64,000 nucleotides of DNA, taken from NCBI GenBank assembly GCA_025336685.1, contig GCA_025336685.1_4717.1. The stretch is one strand, 5' to 3'. The notes beneath the pieces are model-generated. The model worked only from the letters and a program-made list of their open reading frames with translations, ran no database searches and was not told the DNA's origin. Source of the DNA: Escherichia coli. Lineage in GTDB: Bacteria > Pseudomonadota > Gammaproteobacteria > Enterobacterales > Enterobacteriaceae. Positions 2,146-43,268 of the stretch are shown here, piece after piece (within the stretch, counting starts at the first letter, position 1; each line of letters starts with the position of its first letter). The translations under genes were made by a program, and so were the position numbers.

Positions 2146-4758
2146 TTATACGTCCGGCGTAAAATCAAAAGGAACGTCCGTACGAATGATATCATAACGT
2201 TTTCCTAAGAAATAGAACTCTTCGGGAACCAGACCGGGAATAATGCTATCGCCGATGAACTGTGGGTATGCCCAGATGTACTGAGTGAGTCCTTCGAACA
2301 TATCCAGGTTATTTGCGTGGTTACCCATGATACGTTTCCAGAGTTCGCGTTTATACGGTGTTTTGACATCGAACCCATAAAGCGGTGCGAGGTCTTCGCC
2401 AGGAACAAACCCCAGGTAATAGTGGATCTGACTAACCGGGAACCCAAGCGTATCTCGCGGAATGGTGATCGCTTGCTCGGCCTTGGTGACATGCGTCTCA
2501 ATAATCCAGTCGTAGCACTCCGAATAGAACCGATCGAATTTCTCTGGATTATACCACGCTTTGGGAAGATTCAGTTTCTCCGTGAACGCGTTCGACATGA
2601 TCGTCGGCAAGAACGGAAGAACGCCGGTTTTGATCTGCGTGTATTTCGATTTTACCCGATTGACTAGATTCCAGCAACTGTATCCTAATTGATCGTTGCA
2701 GAACTCAACGTAGAGATCGTAATCCCCACCCGATAATGGATTATTAATATCGCCGATGTCTGCCGCATATTTGTTGGGGTATCGGTTATTGAAAGCCAGT
2801 TTGGTTTGGTAATCGTAAATGCACGGTTTATTGTTCTTCGTGTTAATCCACCACCAGGGTTCACCCACCTGCACACAAATGTCTTGGACATGCGGGTAGA
2901 TGATATCAGCAAACGCGGTTAACACATCCCCTAACCACGCCATCGCGTGTTGGTTGCATGGCGACAACAACCAAGACGGCGGCGTATATCCGGTTGCTGC
3001 TATGTTTCCTTCCCAATCCTGCTGCGCCCACTCGAACGGGCATGCCGTGCTCATCAATTCGTAACTTAAACTGATTGTAACAGAGAAATGGTGTTTTGCA
3101 GCGTATGCGGCGAAAGCTTCATGCCATGCGATACAGGGTGGGTTGAGTACATCTGTGGTGTTCACCAGTAACTTACTCGCACTTGGTGTCCAGACAGTAT
3201 CGTAGAAATGCGACATTCCAACATAGTGCACTAATTCATCTTGATATCCCGCATAAACCAGGTTCTCAAATACGCGTTCCGGCGTGATGTTGTAATGGTC
3301 GTCATAAGCGGTTATCGCACGAAGCTCGTGTGGTGTACATTGGTGACGATTAACCGTCATTTCCTGATACACCCCATCAATAGGAAGAATCTCGAGGGTT
3401 AAACCGAGGTCGATCGGTGTTTCCAGGTAGGTCGTTTCTGTAGCACCTTCCTTATAATGTCGAGAACTCATGCTGAACATCAACGACGTGACCGATTCGA
3501 GTTCGATAGGTTCGTCAGCATAGAACCCCGCCATTGCGTCGTTGAAATCGATCGTTACGATTGCGCTTCTACCATCTTCAGAGACGTCGGTGGCGTATCG
3601 GGTTAATGAGATATACTGACGGCTATCGTCTTTGTGTACGACGGTTAAAACCGGCGGGTTTTCGGTATCCGCAAAGTTACGCTGATCGCCAGTAAACGTG
3701 ATCTTGGCTTTAAAGATCAAACCGAACAACGACGTCATGGGATCATACGCAACACAACCATGATCTAGCGTATCCGTTGTCCGCCATTCTATCCCTACCA
3801 ACCCGTTAGCGGTATGGCATCGCATATACGCATTAAGTGTCATGTCTTCACTGACAACCGCGAAGTTCTCTGTAGATTGACCGTTGATAATCCAATACAT
3901 CGGTTGCCAGAGGTTACGCGTGCCTTTTGCGTAGCGGTAGGTTGGTGCGCCTTTAGGGTTGCCGTTATTGAGATGGAATACAGCCGTACCTTGGTAATGA
4001 TCGTTCGTGTTAATCGGAACACTGTACGCGTCGCCGAGGTCCGTACGTTCGACCTTCGTGACAGTTGCGTTTTCAAACAGCCCACGTAGTGTAGGAAGAC
4101 CAATGTCATCAGGCGCGTTTTCTCGGCGAATCGCGTCCGCGATGCGGTGGGCTAGGGCGGGGTAAATGGTCTCACCCTGCTGTAGGTTTGCAAGACCTAC
4201 AAAGCGATCGGGGTTGATACCAGCAATCAATAACTCGACATCGCCCTTCGTTCTATCGTCATGGAGGTATTTCAGTCCAGTAAGATCAAGATGTTGAATT
4301 AACGACAACAGATTGTACTTACGGTTTTCAACAGTCAGTACAAGATCACCTGCCCAAACCAAACTTCCCTCATCCGCCGTTACTCTAACGGATTGGCGGC
4401 CTGTGGTAGACGTTGTTGTCGTTTTATTTAATTGTCCTTGTAGGAAGTCGGTTGCGAGGTCAAAGGCAACGCCGTAACGGTCAGCGACCGCCTGCATGAT
4501 TTCACGTAACTGGGTATCTTCTTCAATGATGATCTTGACAGGTATTCCCAAGAACGCCTTGGCGAGGTCTCGCTTAACCATCGAGACGAATACGGATTTG
4601 TAATATCGGCCTCCATCTTTCCCTTTAAAAAGAATGGAGGTTGTTTCGGGTGACGATAGAACACGTGCAAATTCAACATCGTCGAAAGTAAGAGAAAGTC
4701 CGTTTTTCTCGTTGGTTAATCTTAGTATTTCATTTTGCGCGGTTTCATGTAACTTCAT
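2146..4758 (-). CDS. tail spike/fibre-like receptor-binding protein (870 aa) with shared N-terminal anchor domain
   Basis: N-terminal ~170 aa (KRDLAKAFLGIPVKI...VWAGDL) paralogous to four other proteins in the window; large distal domain of unknown fold; TGAGG SD. Confidence 0.55.
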   Translation of the reverse strand: MKLHETAQNEILRLTNEKNGLSLTFDDVEFARVLSSPETTSILFKGKDGGRYYKSVFVSMVKRDLAKAFLGIPVKIIIEEDTQLREIMQAVADRYGVAFDLATDFLQGQLNKTTTTSTTGRQSVRVTADEGSLVWAGDLVLTVENRKYNLLSLIQHLDLTGLKYLHDDRTKGDVELLIAGINPDRFVGLANLQQGETIYPALAHRIADAIRRENAPDDIGLPTLRGLFENATVTKVERTDLGDAYSVPINTNDHYQGTAVFHLNNGNPKGAPTYRYAKGTRNLWQPMYWIINGQSTENFAVVSEDMTLNAYMRCHTANGLVGIEWRTTDTLDHGCVAYDPMTSLFGLIFKAKITFTGDQRNFADTENPPVLTVVHKDDSRQYISLTRYATDVSEDGRSAIVTIDFNDAMAGFYADEPIELESVTSLMFSMSSRHYKEGATETTYLETPIDLGLTLEILPIDGVYQEMTVNRHQCTPHELRAITAYDDHYNITPERVFENLVYAGYQDELVHYVGMSHFYDTVWTPSASKLLVNTTDVLNPPCIAWHEAFAAYAAKHHFSVTISLSYELMSTACPFEWAQQDWEGNIAATGYTPPSWLLSPCNQHAMAWLGDVLTAFADIIYPHVQDICVQVGEPWWWINTKNNKPCIYDYQTKLAFNNRYPNKYAADIGDINNPLSGGDYDLYVEFCNDQLGYSCWNLVNRVKSKYTQIKTGVLPFLPTIMSNAFTEKLNLPKAWYNPEKFDRFYSECYDWIIETHVTKAEQAITIPRDTLGFPVSQIHYYLGFVPGEDLAPLYGFDVKTPYKRELWKRIMGNHANNLDMFEGLTQYIWAYPQFIGDSIIPGLVPEEFYFLGKRYDIIRTDVPFDFTPDV

Positions 4759-40469: not shown

Positions 40470-40796
40470 TTAATGCAATTGCTTCTTAAAACCTAATTTA
40501 AGAAGCGTCATTCTCTTGTCGATGGTATCTAAGGCTTCCAGCAAGGATTTACGCTGCTCCTTTGTAAGCATATCGACGCGTAGACGTTCGTTAATTTCTG
40601 CTTTAAGTTGTATAGGAAGGGTTTGTGTAAGTATGCTATCAGCCTCCATCTCGTAACTATTTTTCGGTATGGGTAATGCTTCAGTAACGCCAGTGAGATA
40701 AAAACCGATAATGGTTACTCGTTTATCCATTGCTTCTAACAGTTCAGAACTTACTTCATCCACGATAGTTCTCCGTATTAGGGTGGGCGTACCCAC
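40470..40796 (-). CDS. hypothetical protein (108 aa)
   Basis: ORF immediately upstream of thyA exon 2. Confidence 0.4.
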   Translation of the reverse strand: MGTPTLIRRTIVDEVSSELLEAMDKRVTIIGFYLTGVTEALPIPKNSYEMEADSILTQTLPIQLKAEINERLRVDMLTKEQRKSLLEALDTIDKRMTLLKLGFKKQLH

Positions 40797-40810
40797 CCTC
40801 AGTTGTTAAT

Positions 40811-41107
40811 TTATACCGCCACCTTAGCCTTGATAGCAGGGTGTGATTGATAACCGACGAATACAAAGTCTTCGTAGCGGTAATCCGTAATACTTTCCGG
40901 TTTACGTACGATTGTTAGCTTCGGTAATGGATACGGCTCACGACTAAGTTGCTCTTTAACCTGTTCGAAATGGTTGTGATAGATGTGGCAATCCCCACCC
41001 GTCCACACGAACTCACCAACGTCCATATTCAACTGCTGGGCAAGCATATGCGTTAGCAACGAATATGATGCGATGTTGAATGGAACACCTAAAAATACGT
41101 CAGCACT
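40811..41107 (-). CDS. thyA: thymidylate synthase, exon 2 (C-terminal 98 aa)
   Basis: Begins [15 protein letters not shown] and ends PAIKAKVAV, matching the ThyA C-terminus; joins in frame to exon 1 (...LSCQLYQR|SADVFLG). Confidence 0.85.
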
Positions 41108-42214
41108 CATTCTGTTCAGATAAGGTCGTTAATCTTATCCCGTTAAAATAACAGCTGTAGATTATCTCTACAGTTCGGACTATATCACGATCTCCTTCCC
41201 TGGAGACCCCTCCCGTTTCACACCCACTTGGGCGTTACGCTACTCATCACTATTTTTATTCATCCGTTTAGTGCTTTCGCTAGTCTCTGGGCATTCTTCT
41301 ACAAGTCTGTACGATTCAAATTTGGGATTTTTACTACCTAATCGATAAAGTATCGTTGCCGGAACAACACCTAACTGCCGAGCCGCCTCAGTTAAAGAGA
41401 CATACTGAATTCCGTCGATTTCCACTTTACGTGCTGTAGTGGGAATCTTCCCCTTATTCACTTCGGCAAGACGACGTCGCGTCTCTTCTGTATGGTGTCG
41501 CCCATAGAACGAATTCTTTTCCCCGGTTCGGGTTTTTGCAAACTCTGATATCTTTCGACGAGTTTCTTCGCCAACCTTTACACCTAGGCGTCTAGCCCTA
41601 GACGCCGCGATGTTTTCGGGAGTGCATACTTTTCGCCGAATGAGTTCACGTGTTTCCGGTGTATGTGTTCGACCATACATCCCGTTACGTTCGCCCGGAT
41701 TGCCATGAACAGCGCGCCTTTGTTCAGGCGACATCGAAGCGAATCGATCGTTAACGACTTTAGTTATTTTCTCGATTATGTCATCGCGACGTGGGTTTCT
41801 CGATAAATTATCACCGCCTAAAGCACCTTTCCCGATATTGAGAGATGCTTCTTCCGGGATGCTATCGATATACACCTGCTCTAAAGCGTATGCCTCTTCT
41901 CGGGTACTACATTCATCGATATCCACGGTGATAAATCCACCACGGTTATGGATATCTTGTAATTTAGCGTTGTGGTGAGAACCATTACGCAAAGCCGATC
42001 TGTGCGTAGCTAACCGCTGATTAATGTTCCCGGTGCTACCAACATAGACATCGCCGTCTTGAGTACATAACCGATATACTACTGGTTTTTTCATACTGCC
42101 TCCTTTAAAAGAGAGACAGACTTGTAGAAGGTTAGCAACGGATTAGCCCGTAGGCTTTCCCGTTTTAAGGAGGTTATTCGACGTAGCTCACGCTACGAAG
42201 GCGCAGTTGCGTTT
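41108..42214 (-). mobile_element. group I self-splicing intron (1107 nt) interrupting thyA, carrying a homing endonuclease gene
   Basis: Exon 1 ends in U (CAGCGU), intron ends in G (AAUG) before exon 2; P7 strands CCAGAGACUAG (plus 41279-41289) and GAUAUAGUCC (41177-41186); P9 hairpin CUGUAGA-GAUAA-UCUACAG (41155-41173); P8-like hairpin GGUCUCC...GGAGAUC. Confidence 0.8.
41240..42094 (-). CDS. intron-encoded GIY-YIG homing endonuclease, I-TevI-like
   Basis: N-terminal VYRL...DVYVGST GIY-YIG module with conserved Arg/Glu; repeated NGMYGRTHTPETR / NSFYGRHHTEETR NUMOD3-like motifs; C-terminal HTH; AAAGGAGG SD inside the intron. Confidence 0.8.
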   Translation of the reverse strand: MKKPVVYRLCTQDGDVYVGSTGNINQRLATHRSALRNGSHHNAKLQDIHNRGGFITVDIDECSTREEAYALEQVYIDSIPEEASLNIGKGALGGDNLSRNPRRDDIIEKITKVVNDRFASMSPEQRRAVHGNPGERNGMYGRTHTPETRELIRRKVCTPENIAASRARRLGVKVGEETRRKISEFAKTRTGEKNSFYGRHHTEETRRRLAEVNKGKIPTTARKVEIDGIQYVSLTEAARQLGVVPATILYRLGSKNPKFESYRLVEECPETSESTKRMNKNSDE

Positions 42215-42937
42215 ACGCTGGTAAAGCTGACAGGATAAAGCACGTGTTGGTACGTTATGCGCATTCAACCAAAGTTCTGTTTCACTGCGTCGTACATCAT
42301 CCGTAACCCACTGGGTTCTTAATACGTCGTTGCGCTGGACATAATCAACGCGTTCATCGAGTGTGAGTTCGTGGGTATAGAACTGATAGAATGAATGGCA
42401 CGGAGCGAGATGCATATCGTCTAAATCACCTACGTTCCATGCGCTAACGATGATCCGTCGAGAATCAGGATCTTCTTTAAGCTGACGCATCACGTTTGCA
42501 ATCTGATCGTGATGTCTAACATACACGAGGTGTTTTAGCATACCGTCATTAAGAATGCCGAAATATTCATAGCCGCGTTGCATCAACTCACGAGTACGTT
42601 CTGTATCGTGCGGAACAACCACTTTATAGTCGATCCATTCCCGCCATTGTTTGCCGTAAATCGGTCCTAGATTCCCTTCTTCGTCAGCCCATTCATTCCA
42701 GATACGAACACCGTTATCTTGAAGATAAGCAACGTTTGTGTCGCCGTTAAGAAACCAGAGCAGTTCGTGGATAACGCTCTTAAGGTGAATCTTCTTGGTG
42801 GTTACCAGCGGAAATCCTTTCTTCAAGTCAAAACGCATCTGACGTCCGAATACGGAACGGGTCCCGGTCCCCGTGCGGTCGGCTTTATCGCGACCGTTAT
42901 CCATGATGTCTTGCAAAAGGTCCAAATACTGTTTCAT
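42215..42937 (-). CDS. thyA: thymidylate synthase, exon 1 (N-terminal 241 aa)
   Basis: [12 protein letters not shown]...DRTGTGT...[12 protein letters not shown]...[23 protein letters not shown]...LSCQLYQR: ThyA motifs including the catalytic Cys loop; the ORF-track frame runs on into the intron. Confidence 0.85.
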
Positions 42938-43146
42938 TTTAATCCTCTAAGTGTTTCAAGTAGTTCCTGAAATTTATAACGATATTTAGAATCACTTAAC
43001 GTGTAGCAGCAACCACGTAACACGTTATACGCGTAATCAGCTTGTAAACCACGAACCTTCGGATCCAATGATAGATTCAATGACGCGTCATCAAAAATCC
43101 ACGCTTCAATGTTCTTCTTAGATTCCTTCGTTAACATCGTTTTCAC
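42934..43146 (-). CDS. hypothetical protein (70 aa)
   Basis: ORF overlapping the thyA start by 4 nt. Confidence 0.35.
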
Positions 43147-43268
43147 CTCGTCGTAAAAGTAAATAGAGTTTTGTCGAGACGCCCTAATTACTTACAACGT
43201 AGGTTCTCCTGGCTTCAGAGAATTCTTAAAATCCGTTAGTTTTGATAGATAGGATAAGACGGCATAAA

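Follow-up and report, generated by a model that had tools for sequence, protein, structure and literature searches.

An in-frame insertion next to the intron of a split thyA gene appears to be a standard surface module of a large clade of phage thymidylate synthases

The stretch of DNA analysed here (the window, 64,000 nucleotides from an assembly labelled Escherichia coli, contig GCA_025336685.1_4717.1) carries on its minus strand a thymidylate synthase gene, thyA, that is split by a group I intron with an endonuclease ORF. Immediately upstream of the intron, the encoded protein contains a segment that has hardly any counterpart in E. coli ThyA. A preliminary description of this locus regarded an insertion of such size, situated next to the active site and next to a homing-endonuclease target, as odd, and offered three explanations: a structural decoration, the remnant of an earlier mobile-element insertion, or a sign that the true exon boundaries are more complex than they seem. 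Which of these applies depends on whether the segment, referred to as insert 2 in the following, is translated, where it is located in the folded enzyme and how widely it is inherited. With a probability of roughly 0.6, we consider it to be a translated, folded and lineage-defining insertion in a canonical thymidylate synthase, most likely a surface or dimer-edge module. The features on which this assessment is based are compiled in Table 1.

Table 1. Location of thyA, its intron and the segments discussed in the text (positions counted from the first letter of the window).
Feature	Position	Strand	Extent	Basis
thyA exon 1	42215..42937	(-)	codons 1-241, last residues LSCQLYQR	ORF list, sequence, translation, alignment to intronless Goslar thyA
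td-like group I intron	41108..42214	(-)	1107 nt	absent from Goslar; TuIa td core alignment
thyA exon 2	40811..41107	(-)	codons 242-339 + stop	sequence, translation, Goslar alignment
Intron-encoded GIY-YIG homing endonuclease ORF	41240..42094	(-)	284 aa	Pfam
Insert 2	42242..42373	(-)	codons 189-232	unaligned to every PDB thymidylate synthase, AF2, conservation
Insert 1	42518..42634	(-)	codons 102-140, after KQWREW	alignment, AF2
Catalytic Cys codon C180 (= E. coli C146)	42398..42400	(-)		alignment to E. coli ThyA, coordinate from codon number
Cys-loop patch, recoded and mosaic among close alleles	42392..42412	(-)	codons 176-182	four-allele codon alignment
Homing site, exon-1 side	42215..42229	(-)	codons 237-241	four-allele codon alignment
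Homing site, downstream half	41081-41107	(-)	first 9 codons of exon 2	recoded in 3/3 intronless alleles

The intron itself is readily delimited. It is precisely absent from thyA of Escherichia phage Goslar, a jumbo phage that was the nearest relative found among phages with sequenced genomes, where the alignment contains one clean gap of 1107 nt with ~93% nucleotide identity on both of its sides. Its 3'-terminal ~130 nt align to the td intron core of the T4-like phage TuIa, and the last ~35 nt share 97% identity with T4-like td introns (megablast), one position being different from TuIa. The P9 hairpin has been swapped for another perfect hairpin (CTGCATG-GTGA-CATGCAG here, CTGTAGA-GATAA-TCTACAG in TuIa), a compensatory change. 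The intron-encoded ORF contains GIY-YIG (3.9e-12) and NUMOD3 (1e-13) domains according to Pfam, and its match to the I-TevI DNA-binding domain (9.6e-6) falls slightly under the Pfam cut-off. The splice signals of group I introns are present as well: exon 1 ends with CAGCGU, providing the U at position -1, and the intron ends with AAUG, providing the terminal G. As read from the sequence, intron nucleotides 11-14 (GCGC) can pair with the exon-1 end GCGU to form P1 with a U.G wobble at the splice site, and nucleotides 8-10 (ACU) can form P10 with the exon-2 start AGU. The site of insertion lies 21 nt (7 codons) upstream of the one used in TuIa and T4 td. A search of positions 40500-43200 against Rfam (cmscan, E <= 1) matched neither a second intron within insert 2 nor the group I intron, the latter probably having been missed because the 855-nt ORF interrupts its core. 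Splicing at the junction QR/SADVFLG (the slash marks the splice point) recreates the canonical strand of ThyA at every residue and yields a product of 339 amino acids, the same length as that of the intronless Goslar gene. More complex exon boundaries, as had been considered, thus find no footing at a junction that is canonical, matched in length by Goslar and in agreement with the group I rules; to judge from the sequence, the junction is simple and thyA contains one intron.

The size and place of the additional residues were determined by a phmmer comparison to PDB, in which the protein aligned to E. coli ThyA in three blocks (residues 1-101 to 1-101, 141-188 to 107-154, and 233-339 to 158-264) that are separated by two in-frame insertions. 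Insert 2 comprises residues 189-232 (44 amino acids), opposite which E. coli retains 3 unaligned residues; measured between QFY and LSC, it amounts to 46 amino acids, compared with the short VADGK of E. coli. Insert 1, residues 102-140 (39 amino acids), replaces 5 residues of the E. coli enzyme. This three-block alignment confirms the earlier account of an in-frame insertion of ~43 amino acids in the ThyA core just upstream of the intron, of a correspondingly short stretch (~5 residues) in E. coli, and of a second insertion after KQWREW, whose length had been put at ~35 amino acids. The coordinates then given for insert 2, 42239-42373, are right to within one codon: the 46-residue peptide quoted with them (THELTL...PTRA) is encoded by 42239..42376, whereas the range itself covers 45 codons beginning with H189. 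Between the end of insert 2 and the downstream intron there are 8 codons (24 nt), and the catalytic C180 precedes the insert by 8 residues. "Next to the active site" is therefore an apt description of the linear sequence, but not of the fold, where the insert is located at a hairpin turn, 8 to 9 residues along the beta-strand from C180 and R241.

Apart from its insertions, the protein has the sequence attributes expected of a regular thymidylate synthase. PF00303 is matched with 391.5 bits (2e-117; cut-off 24.3) between residues 2-339 and profile positions 1-266, and the thresholds of the NCBIfam equivalogs NF002499 (433.6 bits; cut-off 405) and NF002497 (433.2 bits; cut-off 327) are both passed. 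The core is ~70-75% identical to E. coli ThyA. The catalytic and substrate-binding residues R21, E58, W80, Y94, R160, R161, C180, H181, Q240, R241, S242, D244, N252, H282, and Y284 are all retained and correspond, in this order, to R21, E58, W80, Y94, R126, R127, C146, H147, Q165, R166, S167, D169, N177, H207, and Y209 in E. coli. Because none of them is replaced, normal chemistry is expected, and the enzyme should still methylate dUMP to dTMP. Despite being split, thyA is probably an ordinary, functional gene. For its annotation this means that the extra ThyA residues would need no special explanation: the gene can be described as an ordinary thyA that contains a single intron with a simple junction.

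Closely related alleles provide information on whether insert 2 is translated. The intronless thyA of Goslar (gp141; 339 codons) contains the insert, and the two proteins are identical at 319 of 339 positions (94%). Within insert 2 they differ at 3 of 46 residues (93% protein identity), and a comparison of codons 189-232 yielded 10 synonymous and 3 non-synonymous changes (pS 0.35, pN 0.03). The resulting pN/pS of 0.08 argues for a translated segment under purifying selection. With an open frame, this degree of identity to Goslar and recurrence of the insertion in hundreds of homologues, insert 2 is no product of chance. Two more intronless alleles from metagenomes, P0001 (98% identical) and P0002 (89%), have kept insert 2 as well. 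Since it persists in alleles that lack the intron, the insert is evidently unrelated to the intron 24 nt downstream. Its GC content (0.48) is near that of the gene and of the window (0.46 each). No family was assigned to insert 2 alone or insert 1 alone in Pfam and PHROGs. Intein features were likewise not found in insert 2: the segment from H189 to R232 has no terminal His-Asn followed by a nucleophile and no Pfam match, and with 44 amino acids it is far under the size of a mini-intein.

To settle the nature of the insertion, the preliminary description had proposed an AlphaFold model and a comparison with ThyA crystal structures. The AF2 model used here was calculated from a diverse alignment of 102 sequences; a run with 120 close relatives gave a poorly predicted core (pLDDT 60) and was set aside. 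Confidence of the model is high (pLDDT 96.7, pTM 0.93), with at least 90 in each block of 10 residues. Insert 2 takes the place of the tight turn VADGK between the strands CHSFYQFY and LSCQLYQR, both of which are predicted to be a few residues longer, and consists of three helices (193-202, 204-213, 217-226) carried by the two strands (181-190, 232-244) of the lengthened beta-hairpin. The T-x-x-E that opens the first helix is, we infer, a classical helix-capping box. Insert 1 is modelled as a strand-helix-strand-strand element (101-107, 112-120, 124-130, 135-143). The best match of the model in PDB, to structures of E. coli thymidylate synthase, covers the core only (TMq 0.75, TMt 0.96). When a profile of the insert region was compared to every thymidylate synthase in PDB, positions 15-54 were skipped throughout, and thus no solved structure contains the module. 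Among viral structures the closest match was the predicted enzyme of phage 201phi2-1, which aligns with the whole query (TMq 0.93) and would, by this match, also possess insert 2.

Conservation is distributed unevenly along the module. In 38 diverse sequences, insert 2 follows the pattern QFY-[T/S]-x-E-[L/M]-[T/S]-x-x-E-R, 20-60 variable residues, and L-D-x-x-x-[V/I]-P-x-R-x-LSC, and the protein of the window conforms to this neck motif with T-H-E-L-T-L-D-E-R at its start. The conserved neck residues are E195, R196, L224, D225, P230, and R232; of these, R196 never varies in the 38 sequences, and E195 and P230 are shared by at least 90% of them. Being located at the two points that join the module to the hairpin, these residues probably fix its orientation. 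Insert 2 as a whole is the most variable region of the protein among 117 SPN3US-like sequences, where 27 of its 44 sites vary and its mean entropy reaches 0.36 bits, compared with 0.06-0.09 in the N-terminal and middle core and 0.12 in insert 1. The net charge is negative in 80% of the inserts, averaging -0.06 per residue versus -0.017 for the rest of the protein. The hypervariable, mildly acidic middle of the module is probably solvent-exposed. A nucleic-acid-binding helix-turn-helix was also considered and was rejected in view of the net acidic character of 80% of the inserts.

Both insertions were present in all of the 120 nearest database proteins (64-98% identity, 339-351 amino acids). 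Most carriers labelled Salmonella, Shigella or E. coli come from contigs that resemble jumbo-phage genomes, with lengths of about 100-240 kb and in many cases of 220-226 kb. A 161-residue query that spans both insertions aligned in one piece with 227 phage records, among them SPN3US, SEGD1, Erwinia Agrican-like phages, Cronobacter CR5, phiEaH2, EC001, and Goslar. With a consensus of the insert-2 region, 213 phage records were retrieved, with alignments that covered at least 88% of the query in every case. These include phiKZ and its relatives, Phabio, Xanthomonas LucasX, Aeromonas D3 and LAh10, Tenacibaculum pT24 and PTm1, Rhizobium T4-like phages, a Flavobacterium phage, a 74-kb Delftia phage, ~108-kb Escherichia phages, and the Prevotella Lak megaphages, so that Pseudomonas, Erwinia, Salmonella, Aeromonas, Prevotella, Rhizobium, Tenacibaculum, Flavobacterium, and Delftia are among the host genera. 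A HMMER search covered 1.84 billion representatives of 50%-identity clusters; in the best 150 clusters, which were examined, an insertion of at least 25 amino acids at the insert-2 site occurred in at least 80, one of at least 15 amino acids at the insert-1 site in 86, and both in 53. As insert 1 is missing from several clusters that possess insert 2, the two need not form one unit.

Direct alignment placed both insertions at the same sites in phiKZ gp235 and SPN3US gp229, and neither is found in T4 td or E. coli. The short turn was seen in each of the best 80 ThyA loci retrieved from species genomes of GTDB, with a match span of 99-129 nt versus the ~230 nt expected with the insert, a result that, given the generic search pattern PCHxxFQFY, describes ordinary cellular ThyA genes without insert and not an absence from all cells. 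From these distributions insert 2 looks mainly phage-borne. A candidate bacterial family carrying the insert, suggested by NCBIfam NF010393 (323 positions, partly aligned into the insert), was dropped, as 0 of 102 family members matched strongly. The insert already existed in the ancestor shared by the ThyA genes of phages of the phiKZ, SPN3US and Goslar types, and we regard it as what appears to be a standard surface module of a large, mostly jumbo-phage ThyA clade. Its size and location cease to be odd when the same insertion is found in intronless alleles, phiKZ, SPN3US and 213 phage records. The preliminary description had named, as an outcome that would refute its reading, that phage ThyA proteins carry the segment as a standard feature; this holds for this large clade, but does not extend to T4 td. 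A literature search for a description of the ThyA insertions retrieved nothing relevant. A large group of phage ThyA proteins, including those of phiKZ, SPN3US and Goslar, with two conserved insertions outside every solved structure represents a modest but well-defined gap.

Comparison with individual systems shows which traits are shared. The enzymes phiKZ gp235, SPN3US gp229 and Goslar gp141 have the insertion at the identical QFY/LSC position with the motif TRELT/SxDER ... (V/I/A)PxR, and also share the insertion after KQWR. Their genes are annotated as single uninterrupted CDSs, unlike the split thyA of the window, and phiKZ gp235 differs further by a longer insert 2 (~75 amino acids) and by a third insertion of ~115 amino acids in the small domain. 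The thymidylate synthase of Lactobacillus casei (PDB 1LCA) is comparable in having a lineage-specific surface insertion of 50 residues in the small domain, before the GDLGxVYG motif, with no known effect on chemistry. Unlike insert 2, this insertion lies elsewhere and its structure is solved; the hairpin of the L. casei enzyme is closed by the short turn (profile positions 15-54 skipped). T4 td is likewise split by a related group I intron that encodes a GIY-YIG endonuclease, but its hairpin has no insertion (YQVNVRNGYLDLQWYQRS), and the inserts of the T4 enzyme are located elsewhere. Finer-Moore and colleagues reportedly proposed in 1994 that these T4 inserts are contact sites for the dNTP-synthesising complex. 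Eukaryotic thymidylate synthases contain two inserts of 8-12 amino acids (human residues ~117-128 and ~146-153), the first of which is at about the same place as insert 1 (after QWR) but much shorter, and neither of which is at the hairpin site.

The strands of the hairpin belong to the sheet that forms the obligate ThyA dimer interface, and placing the module at the dimer edge rests on this knowledge of the fold. Consistently, the octapeptide LSCQLYQR has been described as an interface-directed inhibitor that targets the monomer-monomer interface of human thymidylate synthase (PMC8041318). Because a conserved neck and a hypervariable acidic tip are combined with a position on the interface hairpin, insert 2 is best viewed as a surface module that would sit at the edge of the interface, where it might buttress the dimer and/or offer a docking surface for other phage proteins of nucleotide metabolism; participation in the chemistry is unlikely. 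No annotated neighbour of thyA that could be a candidate partner was seen to be shared by phiKZ, SPN3US and Goslar. A more specific version, according to which the insert is a functional surface particular to phage ThyA, either docking to a dNTP-synthesis complex or evolving fast because a host factor recognises or inhibits the enzyme, seems to us unlikely, although it would, if true, constitute an uncharacterised module in one of the best-studied enzymes. The invariant arginine could alternatively have a ligand-binding or catalytic-support role. Extending this thought, insert 2 might retune the chemistry or the substrate, for instance towards pyrimidine hydroxymethylation or, via this arginine, towards folate or polyglutamate binding. 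The invariance of R196, the near-invariance of E195 and the annotation (by itself) of the carrier Tenacibaculum phage PTm1 as "thymidylate synthase and pyrimidine hydroxymethylase" are in line with such a role. We nevertheless judge it decidedly improbable, as the residues for reaction and dUMP specificity (equivalents of E. coli C146, R166, D169, N177, H207, and Y209) are unchanged, the similarity of the core to E. coli ThyA and the passed equivalog cut-offs indicate a regular enzyme, and the insert exits from the hairpin end that lies away from C180 and R241. That many carriers form a nucleus (phiKZ, 201phi2-1, SPN3US, Goslar) might further suggest an address label for import into, or exclusion from, the chimallivirus phage nucleus. 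Such a label is exceedingly improbable, however: the insert also occurs in Lak megaphages and in Rhizobium T4-like, 74-kb Delftia and ~108-kb Escherichia phages, for all of which we know of no phage nucleus, and thymidylate synthase-GFP (TS-GFP) was reported to be excluded from the phage nucleus in the same way as GFP and other non-phage proteins (PMC9067925), so that no exclusion signal is needed.

Two further explanations would derive insert 2 from mobile DNA. Removal of its 132-138 nt as a small second intron or mini-intein might be suspected from the real group I intron nearby and the unusual length compared with E. coli ThyA, these being the only arguments for it, but is in our view extremely improbable. 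The segment is in frame and has accumulated mainly synonymous changes against Goslar (10 versus 3), and its amino acid motifs are kept in hundreds of homologues while the DNA varies. Moreover, group I and group II introns are much longer, Rfam remained empty in 40500-43200, the Cys/Ser/Thr ... His-Asn junctions of inteins are absent, and AF2 models it with pLDDT of at least 90 as an extension of the flanking strands. For the domestication of an ancient element (an intein, an in-frame intron ORF or a homing-endonuclease fragment), several facts can be cited: thyA is a clear target of mobile elements, with a td-like intron and a GIY-YIG gene 24 nt downstream; patches recoded between alleles flank insert 2 on both sides; and other ThyA clusters contain insertions of 170-280 amino acids at the insert-1 site, one of them with a weak match to an I-HmuI NUMOD-like domain. 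We still consider this origin very improbable. Insert 2 alone matches nothing in Pfam or PHROGs, shows no intein splice-junction residues or other intein or intron features, and is just 44-46 amino acids long, folding in the model into a compact helical unit that continues the host hairpin; it is also under purifying selection, is retained in intronless alleles and in distant lineages such as phiKZ and the Lak megaphages, and has been inherited across phage lineages with ThyA proteins of just ~50% identity. Of the explanations offered at the outset, it is the structural decoration that agrees with a translated, constrained and confidently modelled three-helix module inherited across a large phage ThyA clade.

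Independently of the insertion, the alignment of four alleles revealed where these genes diverge. The alleles differ most in two short stretches that flank insert 2, whereas insert 2 itself shows background divergence. One of these stretches is the homing site (codons 237-250), which is canonical in the intron-containing allele of the window. The strand encoded there reads LSCMLLARSQDTVLG in Goslar. P0001 is identical upstream, except for the last codon (241), and differs at 18 of 30 nt over codons 241-250, from the splice point on; Goslar and P0002 are recoded on both sides of the splice point. Among the changes are switches between codon families with an unaltered residue (for Arg, CGT to AGA or CGA; for Ser, AGT to TCG or TCA; for Leu, TTA to CTC), and replacements at the homing site also hit positions that are almost invariant in cellular ThyA. 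Over codons 251-339, the window and Goslar have no amino acid differences. Escape from the homing endonuclease of the intron, or co-conversion by it, would produce such a pattern, and with the recoded intronless alleles nucleus-forming phages may therefore offer a compact case, found in nature, of a target site escaping its homing endonuclease. The other stretch, the Cys-loop patch (codons 176-182), is a mosaic across the four alleles in which HLAPC/ALPAC and CAT TCA/CAC AGT assort independently, with a pS of ~1 over codons 176-183 versus Goslar; this suggests recombination and perhaps a further nuclease target.

The thyA intron of the window resembles the td introns of T4-like phages: its last 35 nt at the 3' end are 97% identical to these, and it contains a compensatory P9 hairpin. 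It differs from them in position, the insertion site of the T4/TuIa td introns lying 21 nt downstream of the one used here, and it was entirely undetected in an Rfam scan at E ≤ 1. The endonuclease encoded within it has a GIY-YIG domain together with a DNA-binding domain of the I-TevI type and a pair of NUMOD3 motifs. The exact span of the intron homing site is recoded in all three intronless alleles compared, those of phage Goslar and of the metagenomic proteins P0001 and P0002. In P0001, 18 of the 30 nt in codons 241–250 are changed and divergence begins at the splice point, whereas in Goslar and P0002 the recoding extends both upstream and downstream of this point. Among the changes are synonymous switches between codon families (Arg CGT/AGA, Ser AGT/TCG/TCA, Leu TTA/CTC), along with amino acid replacements in a normally invariant ThyA strand, with the variant reading MLLARSQDTVLGT. 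Judged from these sequences, the recoding looks like either an escape from the GIY-YIG homing endonuclease or co-conversion by the same enzyme.

Coordinates of the features discussed (window unless stated otherwise)
Feature	Position	Strand	Basis or remark
Intron homing site, codons 237–250	42215–42229 and 41081–41107	minus	Allele comparison with Goslar (L001), P0001 (L004) and P0002 (L005)
Second hyper-divergent patch, catalytic Cys loop, codons 176–182	42392–42412	minus	Allele comparison
td-like group I intron	41108–42214	minus	Similarity to T4-like td introns
ORF, 70 aa	42934–43146	minus	End overlaps thyA start codon as ATGA
ORF, 182 aa	43302–43850	minus	Neighbouring ORF upstream of thyA
ORF, 177 aa	43937–44470	minus	Neighbouring ORF upstream of thyA
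Thymidylate synthase gp235, 488 aa	phiKZ (L002) 2622–4085		

In the Cys-loop patch, the window and P0001 share HLAPC (CAT CTC GCT CCG TGC), whereas Goslar and P0002 have ALPAC (GCG CTT CCC GCA/GCG TGC). The two codons following the Cys (CAT TCA versus CAC AGT) group the alleles differently, and because they combine independently of the HLAPC/ALPAC division, the thyA alleles are mosaics. Possibly a further site-specific nuclease targets this patch. The Pro-Ala preceding the catalytic Cys in the ALPAC alleles is unusual among ThyA proteins.

The metagenomic representative P0159 (256 aa) is a ThyA ORF with an insertion between the QFY and LSC strands that terminates with KHHC* right after LSCQLYQR, the point where exon 1 of the window gene meets the intron; this ORF end suggests that more distant relatives carry introns at the same site. 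After KQWR, where the window protein has its first insertion, many ThyA cluster representatives have insertions of 170–280 aa (among others P0123, P0129, P0139, P0149, P0156, P0158, P0168, P0179, P0182, P0205, P0219, P0263, and P0265). None of the eight scanned contained a Pfam domain within this insertion, although a single one, that of P0133, weakly matches an I-HmuI NUMOD-like motif. Such segments may represent inteins, read-through introns, or an inserted domain of unknown type. Besides the two shared insertions, phiKZ gp235 possesses a third of approximately 115 aa, located in the small domain of the enzyme between WNEW and GDLG.

Approximately 100 near-identical insertion-bearing ThyA proteins (P0003–P0120) are encoded mostly on contigs of about 100–240 kb, many of 220–226 kb, and several sources are labeled Salmonella enterica, Shigella flexneri, Shigella sonnei, or E. 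coli by NCBI. The contigs appear to be jumbo-phage genomes within bacterial isolate assemblies.

Upstream of thyA, the ATGA overlap suggests translational coupling with the 70-aa ORF, whose conserved counterpart is Goslar gp142. The adjacent 182- and 177-aa ORFs, whose Goslar counterparts are the hypothetical proteins gp143 and gp144, look like paralogues by their common start MS(I/V)...(K)(M/V)M and the motifs ...NNAKP...L... and ...TIA(A/T)YAY.
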